DNA of 64,000 nucleotides from a virus (Duplodnaviria; Caudoviricetes): positions 17,911 to 81,910 of the IMG/VR virus record IMGVR_UViG_3300005076_000003. One strand, 5' to 3'. Of this stretch, positions 11,523 to 63,200 are shown in pieces. Numbering within the stretch: position 1 is the stretch's first letter; each line of letters starts with the position of its first letter. Made by a program: the position numbers and the translations under genes. The notes beneath the pieces were generated by a model. That model saw only the letters and a program-made list of their open reading frames with translations. It made no database searches and was not told the origin of the DNA.

Positions 11523-12221
11523 TTAACAATAATCTGATAGTTTAACAATACTCAATTTATAGCCATTGTCGAACTTCTGAAATACGCCACCTGTATCTAA
11601 GAAAGTACAGTTACCAACTTGAGTAACTTCATTCAGAATAAACTTGAAGTACATCTCATCCATTAGTTGTGATAACCCTACATTAATATTACTGCTGAAA
11701 ATATCACTTCGTATTAACTTATCAATCTCCAACATCTTTACTGTTTTAGCAAAGAACACTGCTTCTCTTTCTGTTGTGAATCTGCCTATATTAATCCGCT
11801 TACCACAATATTTCTTAGTATAAGATTGGTGTTTATCCCGTGTTGGGTCGAAATAACTTCCGCACTCCTTACGAACACTTGTTAAAAACAGATTCAACTC
11901 CTTCGGAATATATAAACAAGTGTTTTCAGAATAAACCTCTCCACTTAGAACATCTTTGTCTAGCACGTACCCTTCAACACAGTTTTTCTCAAACCAAGCT
12001 TTGAAGTTAGATAGTGTCAACCAACTCTCACTGACCGAAACATTACCTAAGTAATCTCCTGTGGTGCAGTAGCATCGTTTCAACATATTCTTCCAATCTC
12101 TATAATACTTAAAGGAATGTCTTTTACCGTTCACAAGCCACTCTTTAGACCCATCAACATCGTCGATACCTACACCGTATACAAGGTTTCTTTTAAACGT
12201 ACCATCTTGATTTCGCATCAT
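11523..12221 (-). CDS. HNH-type homing endonuclease fused to the C-terminal remnant of a metallophosphatase
   Basis: W.NMLKRCY...W..LSNFK.WF...LDKD.L...YS..TC.YIP family motif. Tail [17 protein letters not shown] matches the PPP phosphatase C-terminus. Confidence 0.8.
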
Positions 12222-18770: not shown

Positions 18771-19269
18771 TAATCTTCTCCTTCATTATTACTTCAAGTA
18801 TTTCGTCCATACTGTGTGTTCGCTTTAGTATGAACTTTTTAAATATTAACTTACGTTGAGTTCCATTGCAACCTTTTTCTTCATTAAAATGCAATAAAAT
18901 ATTCTGTTTCTGTTTTTCATTTAGTTTGTTGAATTGAACTTGAAGTTTCTTAATGAATGCAGGGTGTAAATACTTTTGCTCGTGTTCCTTGTCAAGATAC
19001 TCAGCACAACCTCTAAGGAAGTCTGAAAGTGTACCTTCATACCACCACTTTATATAACGAATATAAGCGTTTTCTATTTTACCCAATAAAACATTAGTCT
19101 GTCGGTGTAACACTCCCCTAACAAACTGTGTATTATGGTCATGATCAAGTACAGCTTGGTTTGGTGGTATCGCAAGACCCGTAATTAAGTCAAGCCCCTC
19201 TTGTTCAATAAGTAAATCTTCTCGAACTTTCTGAACATCTTTCACTGAATATAAATGTTTTGGATTCAC
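18751..19269 (-). CDS. Recombination endonuclease VII-like
   Basis: CLITG-like LITG, VLDHDH..QFVRGVLHRQTNVLLGKIE. Confidence 0.8.
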   Translation of the reverse strand: MNPKHLYSVKDVQKVREDLLIEQEGLDLITGLAIPPNQAVLDHDHNTQFVRGVLHRQTNVLLGKIENAYIRYIKWWYEGTLSDFLRGCAEYLDKEHEQKYLHPAFIKKLQVQFNKLNEKQKQNILLHFNEEKGCNGTQRKLIFKKFILKRTHSMDEILEVIMKEKINELPIV

Positions 19270-19850
19270 TTTTTAACCTCCCACAATAACAAGGCTTCGA
19301 AAACATGGTTATCTAACATATCTTTCCACTCTAAAGCAACCTCTTTAACATAAGCTTCTTTAAAATTTTTATACGAGATAAAAGCTTCCTCTGGATTATC
19401 AAAATATCCCAAGTGTTTCTTTTTTCCTTTATACATACAATCTGCTTTGAATAACCCAGTACGTTTGTAAAAACTAACACCTGTTGGGAATTTCCCTTTC
19501 GATGTTACCTTGTTAGTGATTAAGCTATTAATGGCTTTTGGTATGAAACAACAAGTTTCCTCTGAATATAGGTGACTGTCTCCTAATAAATCTTTATCTA
19601 ACTCAAACCCATTCTGTAAAAAACCTTTTTGTGTTTTACACCAATTGTCAAAGGAAGAAAAAACCTTAAACCCTTCTGACACCCTACAATTCTTATAACA
19701 AACCCTCTCATACGTTCTGTAACACCGATCTAACATCCTCGTCCAGTAGCGGTAAGATTTGGTTTTAGACTTTCTTCTAGCAACAAGTTTTACATCTAGA
19801 ACACCCACACTTGCATTTGTTGGTAAAATTTCTTGATTATCTTCAATCAT
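19266..19850 (-). mobile_element. Free-standing HNH homing endonuclease gene
   Basis: W.RMLDRCY, ELDKDLL, YSEETCCFIP, AP2-like C-terminus. Confidence 0.8.
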
Positions 19851-20863: not shown

Positions 20864-20971
20864 TTAACTATTAACAGCTTCTTCAAGCTCTAAGAACGAA
20901 TTAAGTTTAGCTACTGTTTCACCTAATTTTGATGTAGCAGTTAGTTTACCAATCTTATTCAAATCAGTCAT
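20864..20971 (-). pseudogene. 35-aa orphan, diverged duplicate of the C-terminal half of the GapR/DsbA-like gene at 21741-21971
   Basis: MTDLNKIGKLTATSKLGETVAKLNSFLELEEAVNS aligns with NNLNKVAKLKATQKLGETMLKMAEFSELVESLD. Has a GGAGG RBS inside the HNH 3' end. Confidence 0.75.
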
Positions 20972-21728
20972 TGTAGTCAACCTCCCAATTTATTAAAGCT
21001 TCATAAACTCTAGGATCAATCTGTTCTTTCCATTTATTAGCAACCTCTTTGATGTAGGTTTCTTTCGCTTGCTTGTAAGCTAGGAATGCAGACTCCTCGC
21101 ACTGGTGTAATCCTAAAAATACAGATTTACCTTTTATACTCAGAGATGCAGAATATTTTAATAAAGCTTTATTAAAATAGACACCTAAAGGTTGCTCTCC
21201 TCTGTGGTTTTTTCTTAAAGTGAATAACCCATTAATCTCTTGAGGTACAAAACAACAAGTTGTTTCACTATACACCTTATTACCTTTCACCAAAATATCC
21301 TTATCTAAGTGGAACAGTGCCCCTTTTTCATCTATAGAGTTAAAACCAACTTGCTTATTACACCAATCTTTGAAATAAGTAAAGTATTTAAAGTTATCAG
21401 ATACTTTACAATCTACGTATGTGGTACAATGGTATTGTTGAGACTTTCTTTCATAGTAACACCTCTTTAACACCTCTACCCAAACAAGATAGTGTGGTTT
21501 ATCATCTTCAGATATTGTACAAAAACCTGTTACACCAACACCGAACACGCTAGGTAACAAGTAGTCTTTTACTTCTCCTTTGTTTATGCTTGATATATCA
21601 ACACGGTATTCACAACCTGTACTTAAGAATCGTATTAGCCTTTTATTATCGTTCCCAGTCTTGCTCAATATCTTAAAAACTCCACAATTGTTGGAATGTA
21701 CAGTGTCCCCAACTCGGTATCTACCCAC
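20964..21728 (-). mobile_element. Free-standing HNH homing endonuclease gene
   Basis: W.EVLKRCY, LDKDILVKGNKVYSETTCCFVPQEIN, C-terminal EVANKWKEQID. Confidence 0.85.
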
Positions 21729-21740
21729 CCCTTATACTCC

Positions 21741-21971
21741 TCAATCTAAGCTCTCAACTAACTCTGAAAACTCTGCCATTTTTAACATAGTTTCACCCAA
21801 TTTCTGTGTTGCTTTTAATTTAGCTACCTTGTTCAAATTATTCCATTTTACTTCAGGTAATTCTTCATCTACTACAGTTTTAATATCTTTAAGTTCTTCG
21901 TTTAAAGTATCAATCTCTTGGTGAATTGAAATGATACGCTCTAGTAGTTGCTTTACTTTAGTTAAATTCAT
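21741..21971 (-). CDS. GapR / T4 DsbA-like dsDNA-binding protein
   Basis: KQLLERIISIHQEIDTLNEELKDIK helical pattern, 76 aa. Confidence 0.6.
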   Translation of the reverse strand: MNLTKVKQLLERIISIHQEIDTLNEELKDIKTVVDEELPEVKWNNLNKVAKLKATQKLGETMLKMAEFSELVESLD

Positions 21972-26192: not shown

Positions 26193-26963
26193 TTAGTCAG
26201 TTATTTCTACCTCATACTTCATTAAAGCTTCATAAACTCTTGGGTCAATTTGATCTTTCCATTTGTTAGCTACCTCTTTGATGTAAGCTTCTTTTGCTTC
26301 TTTGTAAGCTAAGAACGCACCTTCAGGTGTGCTAGAGTACCCAAACTTTCTACGATCTTTCCCTACATTTAATTGGGCGAAAAAGTTACCCCCTCTCTTG
26401 TCAACAGTTACTCCGATAGGATACGCACCTCTGTGGTTTTGTCTCTTAGTTAAAAGATTGTTAATCTCTCTTGGAACTAGCACACAAGTATCTTCACTGT
26501 ACACCTTATTGTCTTTTACTAAAATATCTTTATCTAAAAACCAATCATTATCTGCACCGATCTGACTAACATACCAATTTTGAAAATAAGTGTAATCTGT
26601 AAAATTGTCAGATACAGTACATCCTACATAAGTCGGGCACTTCAACTTATGATCATCAGCGTAACATCTTTGAAGCATGTTGCGCCAAGCATGGTATTCC
26701 TTTCTAATCTTACCGTTTAACTTTACAGGGGCATCGCCTACAAAACCAACCCCACACACTGTTGGAGCATACCGATCTTTAACCCCTCCTGATTTAATAT
26801 CACTAATACGAGCAATTGTGTGGTTTCCAGTGTTTAAAAATTTAACTAGAACATCATTCCATTTTCGGTAATCAACAATGATCAAATCACCGTAATTCTT
26901 TGTTGGATATACTTTACCATCTTGAATTTTCTTGTTTATTTCATGTCGCCCGTTACTTCCCAC
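26193..26963 (-). mobile_element. Free-standing HNH homing endonuclease gene
   Basis: Same family as 20964-21728; WRNMLQRCY, LDKDIL, VEITD end. Confidence 0.85.
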
Positions 26964-32971: not shown

Positions 32972-34483
32972 ATGCGTACATACAACAAAGGTAATACACA
33001 AAACGTAAAGCAAGCTCGTAAACAGAGTAAAGAATTGCGTAAATTGAAGATGGCTAATGGAAGCACAATCACTTTTATTGGAGAGACTGATGAAGCTTTC
33101 AAAGGGTTACAACATAGTTATCATTATGAAGATGATTTTGTTTATGAAGGAGATTGGTGATGAAACAACTACCTGAAACACCAACAGAAGATATGTGGGG
33201 CGGTACAGCTCGACAATTAGTTAAGTATATGCAGATGAAAGATCGTTATTGTCCTGCTTCATTGAAGAAACACTTTGATCGATTTATTGGAGAAATTCCT
33301 GAGTGGTTAAATGAAGAAGTAAATGATTGGACATCTGAACACGCTTTTGCAACTGCTGATCTTGGTGTGTTTATTTATAAAGCAATGTATCACGAATTTA
33401 AAAATTAACTATTTTAAAAGAAACTTCATTTATGTGTTGTTTCTTTTATTTTATCTTGATATACTTATCACACACAAATGAGATTAGTTATGAAAATATT
33501 AGAGAATTGTAAGAACTTGGTTAAGTTGTATATTAAGTTATTTAAGCAAAGTTGGAGGTTGTAAGATGATTGATTGGATTCGTATTGAAGAAAGAACACC
33601 TGAACTTGGTGATTACTCTGTACTAATTTGGTTTGAAGATGGTTCTTGGGATATGGTACACGTTGAAGACTGGTTTGGAGATATTACTAATGGTCTTGAT
33701 GAGAACGGTGTACTACAATATACTAAATGGTATCTAAGACAACCTGTAACGCATTGGGCTTACGTTAATACGCCAGAGGATTTATTGTGAATAATCAATC
33801 TTATTTTACAACATCATCTGTACAAACAATGCAAGGGTTACTAGGGCAGCTAGGAGTTAAAGTAGATTACTCTAAGCACAAAGAAGCTAATGTTTTAATA
33901 TTATTAGATACAGGTGTTTATTTATTATCTTCTGTTAATGCACCAGATCGTAGTTGTAAGACGTATTTAAGTGATAAAGATATTGCAATGCAGGTTGATG
34001 TAGTGGATATTATGAAAGTTACCCAACAGAGTGTTTGTTGGTGTGAGTTATACTAACTACGTATCAAAATTAATTAAAGGAGATTTAAAATGACAGTTGT
34101 ATATGAAAGTAAATATATTACTATTGAGGAAACACCTGCTGGTTGTTTTATTTCAGATGAACGTAGAAACACTACAGTTCAAGTAGGTGAACTTGCGGAT
34201 ATTAACGCAATTGTTAACAGTTTAGAACGTCTTAAATCAGAATGGTATAGTGAGGAGAAGTAAAATGAACAGTATTGAAAATCGTTGTGTGATGTTAGAT
34301 CAAGAAATTGACGAATTAAAAGCTGAGATTCTTGGTGAGTTTGTTTGTAACGATGAAGAAGATAAGATTGACGAATTAATTGATTTAGCTATGATGTTAG
34401 GAGAAGCTTATGTTTATCGAGATAACACTGTAACAAAGATTGTTAAACCAGAAGATGTGGCTGAAGCATATAAACAAGATTAA
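32972..34483 (+). other. Cluster of small hypothetical CDS (32972-33160, 33160-33408, 33566-33790 DUF551-like, 33787-34056, 34090-34263, 34265-34483)
   Basis: RBS and overlapping start/stop codons. 33566 has W...EERTPE...V.HW (DUF551-like). Confidence 0.6.
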
Positions 34484-34494
34484 GGAGAAAGAAG

Positions 34495-34647
34495 TTGAAA
34501 CAAGTTGTATTATTTGATGCACCAGAGAATATTGATCAGAAAGTGGTTTTCTTAGCGCGAGTATCGAGTGAAAACCAAGACAATCCTAAGTATGAAGGTT
34601 TGATGAACTACCTTATTCGAGAAGGTCATGAAACATATGGTAAATGA
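34495..34647 (+). pseudogene. Orphan N-terminal 50-aa fragment of a second, diverged thyX allele
   Basis: AAGGAG RBS plus TTG start. VVFLARVSSENQDNPKYEGLMNYLIREGH aligns with LSYAARVSSPSNQENFDTAGKLLAYCVKHKH of the intact thyX. Confidence 0.8.
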
Positions 34648-35185
34648 AGATTCAGCTTTTGATGAAAAATACAGTATCGACACATTTGGAAATCTTGTGA
34701 ACTTAAAAACAGGGAAGTTCTTAAAGTTCAGAAAAGATAAAGACGGATACTTGGTTTGTAATTTACGTATAAACGGAAAGAGGGTTACAAGATTTCAACA
34801 TAGGTTATTAGCAATAAAATATCTAGCAAATCCTGAAAATAAAACGCAGGTTAACCATATAAATGGGATAAAACACGATAATAGCTTACACAATTTAGAG
34901 TGGTCAACGAGAAGTGAGAACATGCTACATTCAACACATGTTCTAGGTAATCCAAAACCCCCAAGTAATAAAGGTAATACTGGCGTAAAATCTCCTTTGA
35001 GTAGACATATTGTAGGTATAAGTGTTTTAGATGACACATGTTTAATTTTTGCAGGTCAAAAAGATGCTCAACGACAAACCAATTCGCATTTTAAACAAAG
35101 TAATATTTACACAAGCATAAAAACAGGCTGCTCACATAAAGGGTATATCTGGTCATTTTTAGAGGAAGTTGAAGATAATGTTTGA
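34628..35185 (+). mobile_element. HNH homing endonuclease (NUMOD4-HNH_3-NUMOD1 type)
   Basis: HRLLA..YL.NPENKTQVNHINGIKHDNSLHNLEWSTRSEN. Confidence 0.9.
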
Positions 35186-36830
35186 TTTTAACAAAGTAAA
35201 AGTAATTGGTGTAACACAACCAGTTGTAGATTTTATCCCAGATAGTGAAGGTGTTTTATCTTATGCTGCTCGTGTATCCTCACCAAGTAATCAAGAGAAT
35301 TTCGATACAGCAGGAAAGTTATTAGCTTATTGTGTAAAGCATAAACATTACTCTGTATTTGAAACGTGTTCCTTAACAATGGAGATTGAAACACCGCGAG
35401 ATATTGCACGACAAATCTTACGCCATCGAAGCTTCTCATTCCAAGAGTTTTGTGTAGCTGAAGGGACTAAAATTTCTACTATTGTTGGAGGCTCTACCAA
35501 GAAAGTAAAAATTGAAGATTTATATAAACGCTATAAATCAAACCAGTATTGGGATATGTCAGATAATATGGTTCGAGTATTTGATGAAAAAACAAGTACC
35601 TTAGTTCAAGCAAAGATTAAAGAAGTTTTCAAAACTGGTGTCAAACCTGTGTATAAAATGACATTAGATAATGGTCGAACTATCGAATCTACTCTTGAAC
35701 ACAAATTCTTAACTCAAGAAGGGTTTTCTGAACTTGGGGATATTGAAATTGGAGATTTTGTTGGGTGTAATGGTATTCCTGTGTGGCAAATGCAACAGTG
35801 GTTAGCTGAAGCTAAGTTTGAAGCTATTGAGAACGGAACTGGTTTACAAGGGATTGCCGATAAAGCTGGAACAAGTATACACACAATCCGTAAGTGGTTG
35901 AAGAAACACAACCTACAATTCACTAAGAAACAGGTTGCGGTGTATACTGAAGTTTGGAACAAAGGTTTAGATTCAGAAAAACAACCAATGTACGGCAAAC
36001 TTATTTCTGAAGAAACTCGTATGAAAATGCAGGATTCATCTAAGAAAGGTTCTAGCAGCGTACTATTTAAAGGTGGGAATCCTAGAAGCTTCGGGTTAGA
36101 GGTTAGAGATTATTGGTATAAACGGAAAAACAACCTGATTAAAACATTAGGCAGTGTTTGTGCCGTTTCAGGAAAGGAGTGTTCATTTGAAGAATTAGAG
36201 ATTGATCATATCAAACCTTTATCAAAGTTTCCTGAACTTGCTTACGAAGCTTCTAATATTCAGTTGTTGTGTAAAGAAGAACATCGTAAAAAGTCAGCAC
36301 TTGAATCTTCCAAACGCTTATTAACTGCTAGTTGGCATAAGGTTGTTTCTATTGAGTTTGTTGGTGATAAAGAAACTTATGATATGGAGATTGATCACGA
36401 TTCTCATAATTATGTTGCAAATGGGATTATCACACACAATAGTCAGCGATATGCTCAATCTACAGAGTTTATTAGACGTGAGTGCAGATTACAAGACACT
36501 AAGAACCGACAAAACAGTTTTGATTGTTTTGATGAAGATACAGCACACGTTTGGAAGGTTATGCAAGAAGAATTGCTAGAGGTTGCTGAAAAGAACTACC
36601 AACACGCTTTATCAATCGGTATCGCTAAAGAAGTTGCTCGAACTCTTTTACCTGAAGGTTTAACAATGAGTAAGATGTATATGCAAGGTTCTGTACGATC
36701 TTGGATTCACTTTATCCAAGTTAGAAATGATTACGGTATTGCCCAAAAGGAAGTGGTTGACGTTGCTCGTAAAGCTAAAGTTGAGTTATTAAAACACTTC
36801 CCTTGTTTAGAAGAAGTTTTAAATAAATAA
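35178..36830 (+). CDS. thyX: Flavin-dependent thymidylate synthase, intein-interrupted
   Basis: ARVS, HYSVFE, RQILRHRSFSFQEF-[intein]-SQRY, ARTLLP, GSVRSWIHF. Confidence 0.93.
   Translation: MFDFNKVKVIGVTQPVVDFIPDSEGVLSYAARVSSPSNQENFDTAGKLLAYCVKHKHYSVFETCSLTMEIETPRDIARQILRHRSFSFQEFCVAEGTKISTIVGGSTKKVKIEDLYKRYKSNQYWDMSDNMVRVFDEKTSTLVQAKIKEVFKTGVKPVYKMTLDNGRTIESTLEHKFLTQEGFSELGDIEIGDFVGCNGIPVWQMQQWLAEAKFEAIENGTGLQGIADKAGTSIHTIRKWLKKHNLQFTKKQVAVYTEVWNKGLDSEKQPMYGKLISEETRMKMQDSSKKGSSSVLFKGGNPRSFGLEVRDYWYKRKNNLIKTLGSVCAVSGKECSFEELEIDHIKPLSKFPELAYEASNIQLLCKEEHRKKSALESSKRLLTASWHKVVSIEFVGDKETYDMEIDHDSHNYVANGIITHNSQRYAQSTEFIRRECRLQDTKNRQNSFDCFDEDTAHVWKVMQEELLEVAEKNYQHALSIGIAKEVARTLLPEGLTMSKMYMQGSVRSWIHFIQVRNDYGIAQKEVVDVARKAKVELLKHFPCLEEVLNK
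35451..36440 (+). mobile_element. Intein (330 aa) in thyX carrying an HNH nuclease domain
   Basis: Starts CVAEGT; block B IESTLEHKFLT; ends TYDMEI...HNYVANGIITHN with +1 Ser. Internal CAVSG...EIDHIKPL...NIQLLCKEEH. Confidence 0.92.
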
Positions 36831-36929
36831 CAAATACAACGCAATGACTTAAATAGTTGTTGCGTTTTTATTTTACTTGTTTTATGATTGGTGTACTTAG
36901 AAAGTACGTTTATCAAATAGGAGTTGTAG

Positions 36930-37479
36930 ATGACAACTAAACAATCACAATACATTATCACATACGATGATTTTAATGATGCTTTCTTATGTGTTATTGA
37001 TGGAGAAACAATCTCAGCTAACTTTGTTGGAGAGATATTAAGTTATATTGCTAAGTTGTATGATTATGAACCAAAGATTATTTATTCAGAGTCGTATTTT
37101 GTTACTGTGTTGCAAGATGAGTTAAATATTAACATTAAACTAGAATTTGATTATTGATAGGTGTATTATGAAACTACATATTGTTCGTAAGATAACACGG
37201 GAAGGTGTTAAAGAGTACGCTATGCAAGGAATGCAGTTCTCAACACGTACATCTAAAGCTTGGGGTTTAGGAGCTTTAAAGAGTGCTTTGTGGAATGCTA
37301 TTCACTATCGTAGCTACTTAGAAACAAAAGAGAACGCTATTATGCGTTATTATGACAGAGTGTCAGAAGGTGGCAGATTAAAAGTTGACGTCTTAGTTGT
37401 AGATATTGACAATGTAACAATTGAAGAAACACCTATTTTAGAGTGGTGTATGGCTAATTTAATTAAAGAAGGAAAATGA
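36930..37479 (+). other. Two hypothetical CDS (36930-37157, 37168-37479)
   Basis: RBS, operon context. Confidence 0.55.
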
Positions 37480-37480
37480 A

Positions 37481-37903
37481 ATGACAAACGTAACAGCAAT
37501 TGTAGTACCAACGGAGCAAAACCAATCAATCTCAGAATTAACATCCTTGATTCACTGTTTAAATGTTCAAGCCGGTTGGTGGAAAAACTTAGAGACTGGT
37601 GAAGATTTAACATCTAAGTTAGGAGAGAAACCTAAACGTAATATTCCTGAGATGCTTTGTTTAATTCACTCAGAAGTGTCAGAAGCAATGGAGGGTCATC
37701 GTAAGAATCTAATGGATGATAAACTACCTCATCGACCTATGCTTGAAGTAGAGCTTGCTGATGCTGTTATTCGTATCTTAGATATGTGTGGTGGTCTAGG
37801 GTTAGATTTACAAGGAGCTATTTATGAGAAGCTTGCCTACAATGCACAACGAGCAGATCATAAGGTTGAGAATCGCTTAAAAGAGAACGGTAAGAAGTTT
37901 TAA
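37481..37903 (+). CDS. MazG-like NTP pyrophosphohydrolase
   Basis: LIHSEVSEAMEG.RK...EVELADAVIRILD (ExxE...ExxD). Confidence 0.85.
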   Translation: MTNVTAIVVPTEQNQSISELTSLIHCLNVQAGWWKNLETGEDLTSKLGEKPKRNIPEMLCLIHSEVSEAMEGHRKNLMDDKLPHRPMLEVELADAVIRILDMCGGLGLDLQGAIYEKLAYNAQRADHKVENRLKENGKKF

Positions 37904-38014
37904 TCGTAATAACCCCAAGCATGTTAGCAATTTTTCATTAATTTGTTGACATGCTTTTTCTATTTGTGTACTATGTATTTATCGAAACGAAAATGTTATC
38001 TAAAGGAGATTAAC

Positions 38015-41931: not shown

Positions 41932-42708
41932 GTGAAAAGAGAAGAGCAATTAGCTTTGAAGAAAAGTGAATATGAGGGTAAGGTTTATCCAACAAAGAGT
42001 TATGGTGATATACTTGTGTTAGAGTATATCAACTATAGAGATGTTACCGTTAAATTTTTAAACACAGGAAACATCCGTAAAACAGCAACATCAGAAATAA
42101 GGAAAGGTGAGATCAGAGACAATGAAGCTTTTCCTGTATATGCAGTTGGTGTTATGGATATGCCTAACGAACTGAGAAGATGTCATCCTGTACCTAAAGA
42201 ATATAGCGTTTGGAATGGAATAAGACAGCGATGCTATAATGAGAATACTAGGGACAAACTTCCGTCATATAAAGACGTTGAGATGTCGGAGAATTTTAAA
42301 TTCTACTCTTATTTTAAAGAGTGGTGCAATCAACAGGTTGGATTTAACGAAGATGGTTGGCAATTAGATAAAGATATTCTTTCCAAAGGAGTTAAGCTTT
42401 ATTCTGAAGATACATGCTGTTTTGTTCCTGCTGAAATCAATTGTGCATTACCTAATAATAAGAAGGTTAGGGGAGCTTTCCCACAGGGAGTTATTTATAA
42501 TAGCACTAAGACACGTTATAGAGCTAGAATACAAAGAGGAGATAAGTGGGAATCGTTGGGTACTTATGATACACCTGAAGAAGCTTTCTATGCCTATAAA
42601 CCTGTTAAAGAAGCTCATATCAAATCTTTAGCAAACAAATGGAAAGATCAAATTGACCCTAAAGTTTATGACGCTTTAATGAATTGGACAGTTGAAATTA
42701 CAGATTGA
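41932..42708 (+). mobile_element. Free-standing HNH homing endonuclease gene
   Basis: WNGIRQRCY, LDKDIL, YSEDTCCFVP, VEITD end. Confidence 0.85.
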
Positions 42709-54753: not shown

Positions 54754-55641
54754 TTAACTAATATCTTCTATGTGTCTAAACCAAACAAAAGAAGGGCATC
54801 TCGGCTTATCTTTAGCCCCCACACTCATATAGCGAATTGATGCTAACTTTCCTAAATACTTATCTTGATTAGACCAGATTTCATACCTAAGAGCATCCGA
54901 AAAACCCGTGCCACAGTTAAATGTATCATCACCATACTTCAATACTAAACTACCTAGTGTATTTGTAGGGACTAAACCATCTTTTGCGCTACTACGTTCA
55001 GCATAACCTAATTCATCACGCTTCTGTTCATTTGTGTTGTGCATACGTTCATTAAACCCTACAACCTCAAAGTCTTCTTGTTGAAAGAACTTAAACTTAA
55101 TAGATAACTGCTCTTTAGGTGTTGATCTTCCATACTTATAAACACCATCAGGATTCCTGCCAATCAAACCTTCACCACCTTTTACTTTCTCCTTACTTAG
55201 TAACTTTGTTAGTTCTTCCTCTGTTTTAATGTACCACTGTTGTGTAGCTACCACATTAGGGAATTGATCTAATACAAGTTTGTCATTTAAGGTGTACAGA
55301 CGTTCTTTATATGTTTCTGTATTATTTGTAAAGACATCAAAAACATAATAAGTTACATTAGGTGTTCCATCTGTAGACATGACACCTGATGTTGTCTTTT
55401 GAAAAACATCTTTAGCATAAATATCACCAACGATTAGTTCACCATCAAAACCGTTGTACTCCTGTTTACCAAAAAGCTTTTGTACGTGTTTGTTGCGAAT
55501 AGGTTTTAAACTTCTGCTGTAAACAACCCCATCAATTACTAAAGCTCTAATACCATCAAATTTGGTACTTACGTAGATAGGGAATTTAATCTTATCGAAA
55601 GGTACTTCACATGATAATAGTGGGCGTATATTGTTAATCAT
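54754..55641 (-). CDS. lig: ATP-dependent DNA ligase
   Basis: STKFDGIRA (KxDGxR), FDGEL, YVFD, EGLI, KFKFF, CGTGFS, PRCPSF. Confidence 0.92.
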   Translation of the reverse strand: MINNIRPLLSCEVPFDKIKFPIYVSTKFDGIRALVIDGVVYSRSLKPIRNKHVQKLFGKQEYNGFDGELIVGDIYAKDVFQKTTSGVMSTDGTPNVTYYVFDVFTNNTETYKERLYTLNDKLVLDQFPNVVATQQWYIKTEEELTKLLSKEKVKGGEGLIGRNPDGVYKYGRSTPKEQLSIKFKFFQQEDFEVVGFNERMHNTNEQKRDELGYAERSSAKDGLVPTNTLGSLVLKYGDDTFNCGTGFSDALRYEIWSNQDKYLGKLASIRYMSVGAKDKPRCPSFVWFRHIEDIS

Positions 55642-56440
55642 TTATATCAACCTTGTAATTTAATAGTGCAACATAAGAACGTTCATCAATATCATTCATG
55701 TATTTTTGCGCTAGCTCTTTCACATATATTTCCTTTTCAACTTTGTAAGCGCTAAATGCGTCTAACTCGGTGTCAAATAGCCCCACATAAATGGGTTTAC
55801 TATATTTTTTAATGTTTGCTTGATACTTGTTTAATTTCTTATTGTAACACACGCCAATCAGGTGTTCCCCTCGTATACTGTTACTTTTTACTAGTAAAGT
55901 ATTCAGTGAATGTGGTATGAATACACATCCGTCTTCTGAATAGGCCTTGTTATTTTTAATAAGTAAATCTTTATCAATTTCAAAGTATTTTCCTTTTTCG
56001 TCTAATGAATTAAACCCCACTTGGTTATTGCACCATTCGTAAAAATATTCATACGATTTGAAATTTTCCGATACTTCACAACCCTTATATGTTGATAATG
56101 ATTTCCTTTCACTTTTACTATAAACTCGACTAAGAATTGATAACCATAGTGAATATTCTCTTATCTTCTTCCCATTCATTGATGTTGGATATTTACTACC
56201 TATGACACCCACACCATAAGCTGTTCTAACCATCTTATCTCTAACTTTACCGTATAATATATTGTCGAATTTCGCATTAGTTACCCAACCCGTATCCTCA
56301 AATTTAACACAGCAGTAACCACCACTCAACCTCTCTGTTACTGTTAAGTATCCGTAACCTTTGGTTTTTAGTTTTATATTGCCATCAATAATTTTATCTA
56401 TATCTTTTATATAGTAATTATTTAGTTTGTTACAACCCAT
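55634..56440 (-). mobile_element. Free-standing HNH homing endonuclease gene
   Basis: EIDKDLLIKNNKAYSEDGCVFIP; AP2-like tail. Confidence 0.85.
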
Positions 56441-59969: not shown

Positions 59970-60620
59970 TTAAATCTCCTTTATAAAACCATAATATTTA
60001 AGCTCACCTTGCTCTCTAGCAAGGATTGCATCTTCTTTCTTTTCAAACCTACCTAGATTAATCTTCTTACGGTCTTTCATAATGTAGGCATCCCATTTAA
60101 GTTTTTGTTTGTTCCAAGAAACTCCTGTTCGACCAGATGTATTGTTTGTGCTTTTTCGTTGATTAAACCCTTGCACACTTGCATCAGCCCAACGACAATT
60201 CTCAGGAGAGTAGTCTCCATTAATATCAATACGGTCTAATGATGTACCCTCTGGTCGTTCACCCATATCTGTGAGGAAGTCTTCAAAAGACAACCATCTT
60301 TTACAGACGGTAATACCCCTACCTCCATAATCAGGATAACCTACTGAATTTGGATTATTACACCGTTGTAACATACCTTCCCAAGTTCCGTAAGACTTAG
60401 TGCCCATCTTTCCATGTGTTGAAATAGTTTCACGAAGTCTCTCTAATCTAAAACAACCACAAGAAACCCTTTCCTCACTCTTTAAAGCATCTTCACGGAC
60501 TTGTTTGACTGTCCCACAGTCACATTTACAAGGTGTGTAAGCTCTGCCATTTTTGATAAAGGACTTACCAATTACAGTAAGTCGATTTATTTTATCACCA
60601 ATATTAATACTAACTGACAT
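59970..60620 (-). mobile_element. HNH-AP2 homing endonuclease gene
   Basis: [18 protein letters not shown]...YGGRGI.VC.RW..FEDF..DMGERP..SLDRID.NG.Y..ENCRWA. Confidence 0.9.
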
Positions 60621-61422
60621 AACCACCTTCTCGTTCAAATGCAATAACCAGTTGCTTAACCATCTCAGAACGAACAATATCATCATGGTTGAATCGAATA
60701 ACACCAACATCAGGGATATAATGTTTTAACACAACACCCTCAAACCACTTTAAACCGTTATCTTTTGTGTCAGACTGGGCGTTATCACCTATACAGACCA
60801 AACGACAGTTTTCACCAAGTCGTGTTGTTAGTGCTTGCATCTCTCCAATAGTGGTATTAGAAGATTCGTCAACAATTACTATACAATTATCAAAGCTACG
60901 ACCACGAATTGATTCCAATGGGGCTAACTCAATCTTGTCAGCAAGTAGTAGTTGTTCCTCAACCATACCTTTACCTAGCACATCAGATAAATAGCCAATC
61001 AGAGGTAACACAAAAGGACGTAGCTTCTCAAGATCAGAGTTTGGTTTAAACCCTGTAGTACGCCCTGACACAGCAACATAAGGTCGAGTAATCACAATCT
61101 TTTCAATATTACCTGATAACAATTCAGAAGCAGCGTATCGGCAAGCTAAGTAGCTCTTACCTGTCCCTGCACTACCAGTACCAATAGTGATGATATTTTG
61201 TCGCATACTGTTTAAGAATTGTTCTTGGTGTTGATTCTTTGGTTGAATATGAATTGCTTTACCACGTTGCTGACGATCTTCTTCCCATTTCATCTTCGGT
61301 TCACTACCTCCAACATGATTCTTCTTGTTTTCACGGTTATTGGTACTGCGATTGTTATGCTTACCATTCCCTTTTACACCTCGATCACCATGACCGCTAT
61401 ACCGTTGCGCTGAATTTGACAT
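60610..61422 (-). CDS. phoH: PhoH-like ATPase
   Basis: [48 protein letters not shown]. Confidence 0.92.
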
Positions 61423-62265: not shown

Positions 62266-63008
62266 TTAATCGTTAATTTCAACTTCATAGGTAGTAAGAG
62301 CTTCGTAAACTCTGTTATCAATTTGATCTTTCCATTTGTTAGCCACCTCTTTAATATAAGCTTCCTTAGCTTCTTTGTAGATTTGGAATGCTTCTTCTGG
62401 TGTAGAGAAAGAACCTAAACGCTTTCTCTTCTTTCGCCCCACAGATACATCAGCTTGATATTTTCCTTTCTGCTTATCAAACCAAACACCTATTGGTAAG
62501 TCGCCACGAGCAGCATCTCTTTTAATAAACAATCCGTTAATCTCTTGAGGAACAAACAACAAGCGTCTTCACTATATACTTTATTACCTTTAATTAAGAT
62601 GTCTTTGTCCAAATGCCAACCATCTTCGTTAAATCCAATTTGCTTATTACACCACTCTTGAAAGTATGGGTAATACTTAAATTTCTCTGAAACCGAGCAA
62701 TCTGCATATGTAGGAGACTTTTTGTGAAATTCACTATCGTAACACCTTCCAATCACCCCTTTCCATAGGGCATACTCTTTTAAAACTATACCACCAACAG
62801 TAGTTGAAGCATCACCAACTACACCAACACCGTGTAGGCTTGGGAATAACCTGTCTTTAACTAGTCCGTTTCTTATATGGCAGATATGTGCTGTTGTTTC
62901 ATAGTTAGTGTTTATGAACTTAACACATACATTGTGATTATTGATATACTTGGTTACTACCAAGTCGCCATATTTGATAGTTTTAAAAATCTTTCCTTCG
63001 TACTTCAT
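62266..63008 (-). pseudogene. HNH homing endonuclease gene with a single-base deletion near 62554
   Basis: TGT TGT TT GTT CCT, whereas paralogs read CCFVP. The two ORF-track pieces join into one HNH. Confidence 0.8.
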
Positions 63009-63200
63009 ACGAACCTCCCCTTTAGAATTAAGTTTAAAACACAAGTCTCCTAACTCTTATGTTTTCTTGTTTACATTTACTAGTATATGTCACTAAATTC
63101 AATACGTCAACCCCTCTAGCACACAAACATTTAAATTATTTTAAATACAGCAAAAACAATACCTTATCTAAAAACACACCATTGTTACAAAAAATAAAGC

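Follow-up and report, generated by a model that had tools for sequence, protein, structure and literature searches.

The usual view is that a homing endonuclease requires either a self-splicing host, an intron or an intein, or alleles similar enough to recombine. Free-standing phage endonucleases such as SegF, SegG, and MobE of T4 carry out intronless homing (PMC2988022, PMC2790892). In fungal mitochondria, mobile endonuclease open reading frames (ORFs) associated with atp6 of Allomyces and with atp6, atp9, cox2, and nad3 of Glomus carry a foreign C-terminal gene portion (PMC3630166). In phage homing endonuclease gene islands, essential genes are bordered by nuclease genes, HNH_3-type ones among them, which mark where exchanged alleles begin and end (Barth et al., 2023, PMC10448857). 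Here we describe the thyX locus of an uncultured wastewater phage, in which a short 5′ piece of one thyX allele (the stub) is followed by an HNH endonuclease gene and a complete thyX of a different type. The locus lies in a stretch of 64,000 nucleotides (nt), called the window, that comprises bases 17911-81910 of an 81.9-kb genome in IMG/VR; this genome is a mosaic and a distant relative of the Acinetobacter phages TaPaz, BS46, phiAB441, and Mithridates, and Acinetobacter is its probable host. We refer to the allele from which the stub derives as type A, to the window's full thyX as type B (thyX-B), and to a third allele as type C. The locus is probably an intronless homing cassette, in which an I-HmuI-like HNH gene together with its own B-type thyX would have overwritten a resident thyX-A, with the stub retained.

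Like SegF, SegG, and MobE, the HNH gene stands between genes, beside a conserved gene of nucleotide metabolism or replication, and is polymorphic for presence and absence among related phages; co-conversion of flanking donor markers would be expected here as well. Unlike those systems, the donor and recipient alleles at thyX are too divergent to recombine (about 40-45% amino acid identity), the resident gene is exchanged for a whole heterologous one, and a 5′ piece of it has been retained as a stub, while cleavage is putative. The fungal mitochondrial elements appear to be the closest conceptual precedent, and the thyX locus is best regarded as analogous to them and not as a member of that group. 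In both, foreign coding sequence substitutes for part of a resident gene and the native part stays behind as an orphan duplicate. The fungal elements fuse their C-terminal portion in phase to the resident 5′ part and leave a 3′ orphan, whereas the phage locus has a complete gene and a 5′ orphan; in addition, its stub has been kept coding-like and two allele types have been hit at one codon. Spliced gene fragments and allele swaps are described for the phage islands, and the match to our locus is the nuclease at an allele-exchange boundary; a keyword search of the text of PMC10448857 found no mention of stubs kept from displaced alleles, or of different alleles truncated at the same codon.

The locus consists of three overlapping reading frames on the plus strand (34495-34647, 34628-35185, and 35169-36830). 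As the initial annotation of the window had described, these are the stub, the HNH gene, and a complete, quite different thyX whose start is overlapped by the HNH stop codon. The stub starts at a TTG with AAGGAG 7 nt upstream. The ribosome-binding site (RBS) region of the A-type gene (AAGGAGAAAGAAG, 34482-34494) has been kept with it: blastn homology to the intact A-type loci L052 and L053 (L035-L072 denote metagenomic loci or contigs) begins at 34482, 13 nt ahead of the TTG and immediately past the stop codon of the preceding ORF, and stops exactly at a conserved His codon, CAT, at 34627-34629. Between 34482 and 34629, nucleotide identity to these intact loci is 93-94% (93.9% to L052). The stub thus comprises codons 1-45 of an A-type thyX (34495-34629), ending at the conserved ..LIREGH. 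Comparison with intact alleles and relatives delimits the junction that follows (34630-34647) as five codons that are not ThyX (ETYGK) and the stub stop, TGA at 34645-34647, overlapping the beginning of the HNH gene. At the junction, intact alleles read CAT TGG TC.., most relatives read CAT TGA and then directly ATG or GTG, and the subclade of the window and L035 has a rearranged junction. An apparent continuation of A-type homology past the junction (ATATGGTAAATG, 34635-34646, 11 of 12 positions matching the Mithridates codons D-M-V-N) was rejected as a coincidence, because relatives show that M-x-N-x-D is the N terminus of the HNH protein in the window/L035 subclade.

When its 50-residue product was compared alone with Pfam Thy1, the stub gave only a weak match (E 0.085, profile positions 2-52, 13.1 bits versus a cut-off of 24.8), so the ThyX similarity that had been assigned to it falls below threshold by this measure. 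Its origin is nevertheless settled by its identity to intact ThyX N termini. The stub is 77% identical to the N terminus of ThyX from Acinetobacter phage Mithridates (tblastn E 9e-17), and over its first 45 residues it shares 96-100% identity with many intact metagenomic ThyX proteins of 228-230 residues, which continue ..REGH-WSPLDMVN.. past the end of the stub. Judged by these identities, the stub is, as had been proposed, the genuine 5′ end of another thyX allele; this allele type is intact in sibling phages (L052-L056). Uninterrupted relatives had been expected to match the stub at their 5′ end and the full gene at their 3′ end; the first expectation holds, but these alleles are A-type and share only the low identity to thyX-B given above. 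BLASTP produced no alignment between the stub and the window's own ThyX (E 13), the alleles having diverged too much for a query of 50 residues. Since it retains 45 of about 229 residues, the stub cannot be an enzyme.

I-HmuI-type HNH_3 endonucleases are classically intron-encoded, and the HNH protein here matches I-HmuI. It is nonetheless highly improbable that thyX-A contains an intron or is trans-spliced here, with the stub as its first exon: a stop codon follows straight after the stub, the downstream thyX has its own complete N terminus, no A-type 3′ part was found anywhere in the 81.9-kb genome, and an Rfam search of 33000-38000 (cmscan, E up to 1) detected no group I or group II intron. 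Two of the contigs that bridge the stub, the HNH gene, and thyX-B derive from RNA libraries, and their collinearity with the DNA counts weakly against splicing, DNA carry-over being possible. With neither an intron signal nor a second exon, the arrangement appears to be splicing-free, as first suggested.

The HNH gene is free-standing, with an ORF of its own between the stub stop and the thyX-B start, and is not embedded in an intron or intein. Its product matches Pfam HNH_3 (1.9e-8, 34.2 bits versus a cut-off of 24.8), NUMOD4 (4.3e-5, 24.1 bits versus a cut-off of 23.4), and I-HmuI of phage SPO1 (PDB 1U3E; E 2.3e-9 over residues 7-96). The N-terminal NUMOD4-like region and the HNH motif align with I-HmuI, whereas the C-terminal halves do not, and I-HmuI resides in a group I intron of a DNA polymerase gene. 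The window protein has an unbroken VNHINGIKHDN..NLEW..SEN motif; in the alignment of the HNH family, N76, N89, and N98 are invariant and H77 is nearly so. Family members have 182-190 residues. Although the ORF opens at an ATG at 34628, within the GGTCATG taken as the start in the initial annotation, close relatives all have 182 residues and align from the second ATG, which makes 34637 the probable start of the gene (34637-35185, 182 codons). At its 3′ end (ATGTTTGA, 35163-35185), which contains the Shine-Dalgarno sequence of thyX-B (GAGGAAG), the HNH stop codon at 35183-35185 overlaps the thyX-B ATG at 35178 by 8 nt. phiAB441 and most of the contigs share this overlap, the three exceptions among those read being L051, L065, and L067. 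The C-terminal NV and stop that the overlap encodes are nearly invariant in the family alignment, and both the overlap and this C terminus are kept down to 45% identity. Two related sequences deviate in other respects. In L051 (239-781; P0011), which lacks a stub, the HNH protein has VNRING in place of the catalytic VNHING of the family and may be an inactivated endonuclease. Upstream of the stub in L038 (2-160, minus strand), an inverted stretch resembles HNH residues 16-58 with 57% identity and represents either a genuine partial copy in inverted orientation or a hairpin artefact of the assembly.

The thyX-B ORF (35169-36830) matches Thy1 with 118.7 bits in two stretches. The first is an N-extein of 91 codons (35178-35449), recognized by Pfam Thy1 and 83-99% identical in amino acids to thyX of phiAB441, TaPaz, and metagenomic relatives; the second is a C-extein (36440-36830; Thy1 profile positions 83-190) that is 52-94% identical to relatives. 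Between them lies an intein of 330 residues with an HNH nuclease domain (35450-36439), which begins with Cys, ends with His-Asn, and is followed by Ser. It matches Pfam Intein_splicing (1.2e-19, 71.1 bits), HNH (5.3e-7, 30.1 bits), and NUMOD3. The intein is inserted in the RHR..(S)QRY motif of ThyX, and removal of 35450-36439 restores ..RHRSFSFQEF^SQRY.. (caret, insertion point). In two wastewater runs (X1 and X4 of the four runs X1-X4), contigs that join 35449 exactly to 36440, a skip of 990 nt, occur beside intein-bearing ones. Among the other loci, the intein is present in L064 and L065, as in the window, and absent from L038, L044, L047, L051, L060, L067, and L070. thyX-B is a complete, intein-bearing gene; the claim of a complete thyX holds for the full gene, but the annotated segment ended at 35460 and only just touched the intein that interrupts it. 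With the HNH gene and a polymorphic intein, the thyX locus hosts two unrelated homing elements.

Contigs whose flanking genes encode proteins 76-100% identical to those of the window fell into three arrangements. In the first, an intact thyX-A without an HNH gene is flanked by genes syntenic with the window (L052-L056). The second is the A-type stub followed by the HNH gene and thyX-B, found in the window, L035-L043, L047-L050, and L060-L062, with HNH proteins 70-87% identical to that of the window; in all, about 20 independent wastewater contigs show it. In the third, HNH and thyX-B are joined to other left sides. Relative to the intact thyX-A state, the replaced segment extends from codon 46 through the next gene to a module of gene end and terminator at 36819-36890. 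Its match in L053 (2618-2688) is the end of the gene downstream of thyX-A, and a terminator-like hairpin with a T-run found in a terminator scan (36838-36866, plus strand) probably marks the right-hand boundary, at which similarity to A-type genomes sets in again. thyX-B and the gene after thyX-A share their last 12 nt (TTAAATAAATAA; window 36819-36890, L053:2618-2688, L044:6500-6580), followed by a hairpin with differing stems and then the same T-rich tail; the common gene end and terminator look like a portable module serving as a recombination boundary.

Contigs from four wastewater runs bridge the stub, the HNH gene, and thyX-B. In X2 and X4, other contigs leave the window sequence at 34629 and continue TGGTCTCC.., the sequence of an intact thyX-A. 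As both kinds of contigs occur in the same runs, invaded and naive alleles meet in nature. A contig joint from 34622 to 36618 was also seen with low support, and we attach no interpretation to it. Among isolated phages, TaPaz and phiAB441 likewise differ in the presence of the HNH gene. ORFs upstream of thyX in TaPaz, BS46, and vB_PsaM_M1 contain neither HNH nor ThyX remnants, and the ORF upstream of the phiAB441 HNH gene matches no Pfam family.

A second allele type has been truncated at the same codon. In the beta clade of HNH genes (L044-L046, L063, L064, and L067; 52-54% identical), the ORF that abuts the HNH gene is the N terminus of a C-type ThyX. This stub matches Pfam Thy1 with E 0.013 (profile positions 3-50), and its 47 residues are 100% identical to intact ThyX proteins of 210-226 residues that continue ..AKHNH-FTPLAH... 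Collinearity between L044 and the intact C-type locus L072 extends from the upstream gene to 2-3 nt beyond that same His codon. From there on, L044 has the HNH gene's own leader, GTGAGGTATT-ATG, which the stubless L051 also has. HNH genes of the alpha clade are mostly without a leader of their own. The A junction reads CAT TG^A (A/G)TG and the C junction CA(C/T) TT(T)^GTGAGG (caret, junction), within about one nucleotide of each other relative to the conserved His. Because an A-type stub is not convertible to a C-type stub by recombination with intact genomes, these were two independent events at one site, and a site-specific break beside that His codon would be the simplest explanation for the shared truncation point.

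On the HNH tree, genes with A-type stubs form one clade (86/84), with the stubless L051 as sister, and those with C-type stubs form another (97/97), with the stubless L065 and L066 as sisters. In all three main clades (alpha, beta, and phiAB441-like), the HNH 3′ end overlaps or abuts the start of a B-type thyX. Since both stub clades and their stubless sisters are joined to thyX-B, the linkage of HNH to thyX-B predates both stub events. The proposed linkage of the HNH gene to a replacement thyX and its recurrence are borne out by these data; the suggestion that the HNH gene travels with a gene half is not, as a whole gene with its own start follows it.

To understand how the stubs have evolved, we compared them with intact alleles. 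Stubs have diverged from each other to a mean synonymous divergence (dS) of 1.18, with a ratio of nonsynonymous to synonymous divergence (dN/dS) of 0.025; the ratio for intact alleles is 0.009. Substitutions in a neutral relic would be indifferent to codon position, whereas those in the stubs are not, so the stub is not decaying. Stubs also fail to form a group of their own and are interleaved with intact alleles. It is thus unlikely that the stub is a passive relic, a dead 5′ piece of thyX-A left by illegitimate recombination, without a role and not yet decayed, beside an HNH gene that is a bystander. The small-ORF regions that flank the locus are highly mosaic, some junctions show decay-like changes (the window has lost the TGA, L035 carries a frameshift, and L047 reads REAF and then a stop), and promoter-like sites were not enriched over shuffles, all as that account would have it; yet it must accommodate stubs whose dN/dS resembles that of intact genes at such a dS, accompanying HNH proteins that have diverged to 70% amino acid identity, two different alleles cut at the same codon, and identical HNH DNA beside two stub haplotypes. 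Described at first as an orphan of an older allele, the stub is indeed the 5′ end of a different allele; it is not simply a decaying relic, being long-lived, coding-like by its dN/dS, and repeatedly recombined with intact alleles.

The identical HNH DNA was found in eight assemblies from one study (L036-L043), with 1 single-nucleotide polymorphism in 549 nt. These assemblies carry two stub haplotypes, with L036 and L037 differing at 15 of 135 sites (about 11%), as well as one recombinant inside the stub, and two unrelated upstream flanks occur in all four combinations. As the variable sites are no more than one assembly k-mer away from the invariant HNH gene, the problem of chimeric contigs is limited but not removed. 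Mosaicism extends to intact alleles: between the window stub and intact L052, there are no differences among 58 sites in the 5′ part and 9 among 77 in the 3′ part, and between the L049 stub and intact L056 the corresponding values are 0/95 and 5/40. These mosaics indicate that the stub has been repeatedly re-sampled from functional thyX-A genes, which is what the left homology arm of a homing cassette would be expected to experience. Taken with its single origin on the HNH tree, the stub appears to be a long-lived part of the cassette.

Could the peptide itself be what is selected? A stub product of 45-50 residues might act as a regulator, as a partner of the HNH protein, or as an inhibitor of a rival phage's ThyX tetramer, and the strong RBS, an ORF that is open in all variants, the dN/dS of 0.025, and the RNA-library contigs that cover the stub (DNA carry-over possible) would fit such a function. 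We consider this quite improbable, as stretches identical to intact alleles, which point to import by recombination, account for the low dN/dS. Apart from codons 2-6, which vary in intact alleles too, amino acid and frame changes in the stubs compared adjoin the junction, where import cannot reach, and in the sister clade an unrelated C-type stub fills the same position. In nearly every junction variant, the stub stop is 0-8 nt from the HNH start, in the forms TGA-ATG, TGA-GTG, TAA-ATG, TAG-N6-ATG, an ATGA overlap (C type), and ATG-N5-TGA (window).

Several observations weigh against the homing cassette as we propose it. Synonymous divergence of the HNH gene is saturated against all relatives, whereas dS of the adjoining thyX-B N-extein is only 0.4-0.6, even beside HNH genes of 51-58% nucleotide identity, with the change-over about 44 nt before the thyX-B ATG. 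Given this discordance, HNH and thyX-B do not have one common history and are not strictly co-inherited; either thyX-B is homogenized by frequent recombination or HNH lineages replace each other before a resident thyX-B. The stub mosaics could stem from ordinary recombination among co-infecting phages without an endonuclease, the Fisher p values for the two described above (0.01 for window/L052 and 0.002 for L049/L056) are optimistic because the breakpoints were picked after inspection, and short metagenome contigs can be chimeric. The common truncation point could come from microhomology (..CATT..) or from selection on stub length, and the target could be elsewhere. At the conserved His site of thyX-B, we found no consistent difference between HNH-plus and HNH-minus phages. 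Finally, in L068 (2480-3668) a member of the HNH family with 47% identity sits directly before an intact A-type thyX with an unbroken His-Trp-Ser-Pro; either its specificity differs or that thyX-A allele is resistant.

The discordance in dS is what would be expected if the mobile unit were the HNH gene plus a stub from an earlier thyX host, hopping between thyX types, with thyX-B as backbone and not cargo. Distant family members in L068, L069, and L071 indeed sit directly upstream of A-type and other thyX types, and each stub type is tied to one HNH clade. Such turnover is likewise unlikely, as collinearity with an intact C-type genome covers both the C-type stub and the gene upstream of it (L044 versus L072), A-type stubs of the L036 kind lie behind the same upstream gene as the intact thyX-A of L052, and the HNH-thyX-B overlap is ancestral to both stub events.

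We therefore return to the homing cassette, for which we infer a cleavage site, homing, immunity of thyX-B, and translational coupling as follows. In the ancestor of the alpha HNH clade, a linked HNH-thyX-B pair would have replaced the resident thyX-A from codon 46 on, together with the following gene. The break, 2-3 nt after the conserved His codon in the motif H-W/F-S/T-P-L, most likely lay at or next to the endonuclease cleavage site, and the left end would have been joined illegitimately to the HNH start. The stub left behind could then have two jobs. First, its strong RBS and abutting stop may feed ribosomes to the HNH start, such that stub, HNH, and thyX-B would be translated as a series of coupled frames from the old thyX-A RBS. 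Second, it may serve as a left homology arm for copying the cassette into phages with an intact thyX-A. The B-type gene would stand in functionally for the lost allele and would itself resist cleavage. Where A and C types read H-W/F-S/T-P-L, thyX-B reads H-Y-S-V-F; that it is resistant is a prediction only.

A bolder version of this reading, which we put forward tentatively as a serious possibility still somewhat short of probable, is that the stub is an evolved component and not debris. The cassette would carry its own homology arm and launch pad, giving a drive that overwrites heterologous thyX alleles throughout a phage population; the common truncation codon would be a footprint of the cleavage site; and the device would have arisen at least twice for thyX, with a mirror image at another locus. 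The locus suggests a third route to homing, in which an endonuclease is linked to a full copy of its target gene, probably a resistant one, and to a short piece of the victim allele. With a resistant copy and a kept piece of the victim, quite different alleles could be replaced without loss of function. If so, this would explain the swapping of very divergent thyX types within one phage lineage, would allow endonuclease cut sites to be read from the common truncation points of orphan stubs, from sequence alone, and would offer a natural design for allele-replacement cassettes in phage engineering. For annotators, short "hypothetical" ORFs beside endonuclease genes may be such stubs.

The mirror image is at a GapR-like locus on the minus strand (20864-21971), which supports the view that the pattern recurs. 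There, a complete GapR-like gene of 76 codons (21741-21971) is followed by an HNH gene of another family, one related to TaPaz_94 (20964-21728; 254 residues), and then by an ORF of 38 codons (20864-20980), residues 6-37 of which are 53% identical to the C-terminal 32 residues of the GapR-like protein (E 6e-10). The 3′ orphan is as in the fungal elements, but it lies behind a whole gene and not behind a fused C-terminal portion.

Megablast of window 33500-37500 against isolated phages gave no match. In IMG/VR, the upstream ORF (34250-34483) as query found no relatives and the HNH gene alone found distant relatives only. A B-type ThyX query returned 80 IMG/VR loci, none closer than 65% and none with the stub-linked HNH family, so an HNH-less thyX-B in this phage group was not found. 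Upstream of the stub, contigs in runs X1-X3 join the end of ORF 33787-34056 to the stub RBS via only 13-31 other letters (region 34046-34482). ORFs 34090-34263 and 34250-34483 are skipped in these contigs, which makes the two small genes an indel polymorphism. The second HNH family (relatives of TaPaz_94 and Mithridates_00144) is represented by at least eight genes or gene pieces scattered in the window (11523-12221, 19266-19850, 20964-21728, 26193-26963, 41932-42708, 55634-56440, 59970-60710, and 62266-63044). The last of these, the pair 62266-62562 and 62490-63044, looks like one gene of this family broken by a frameshift.

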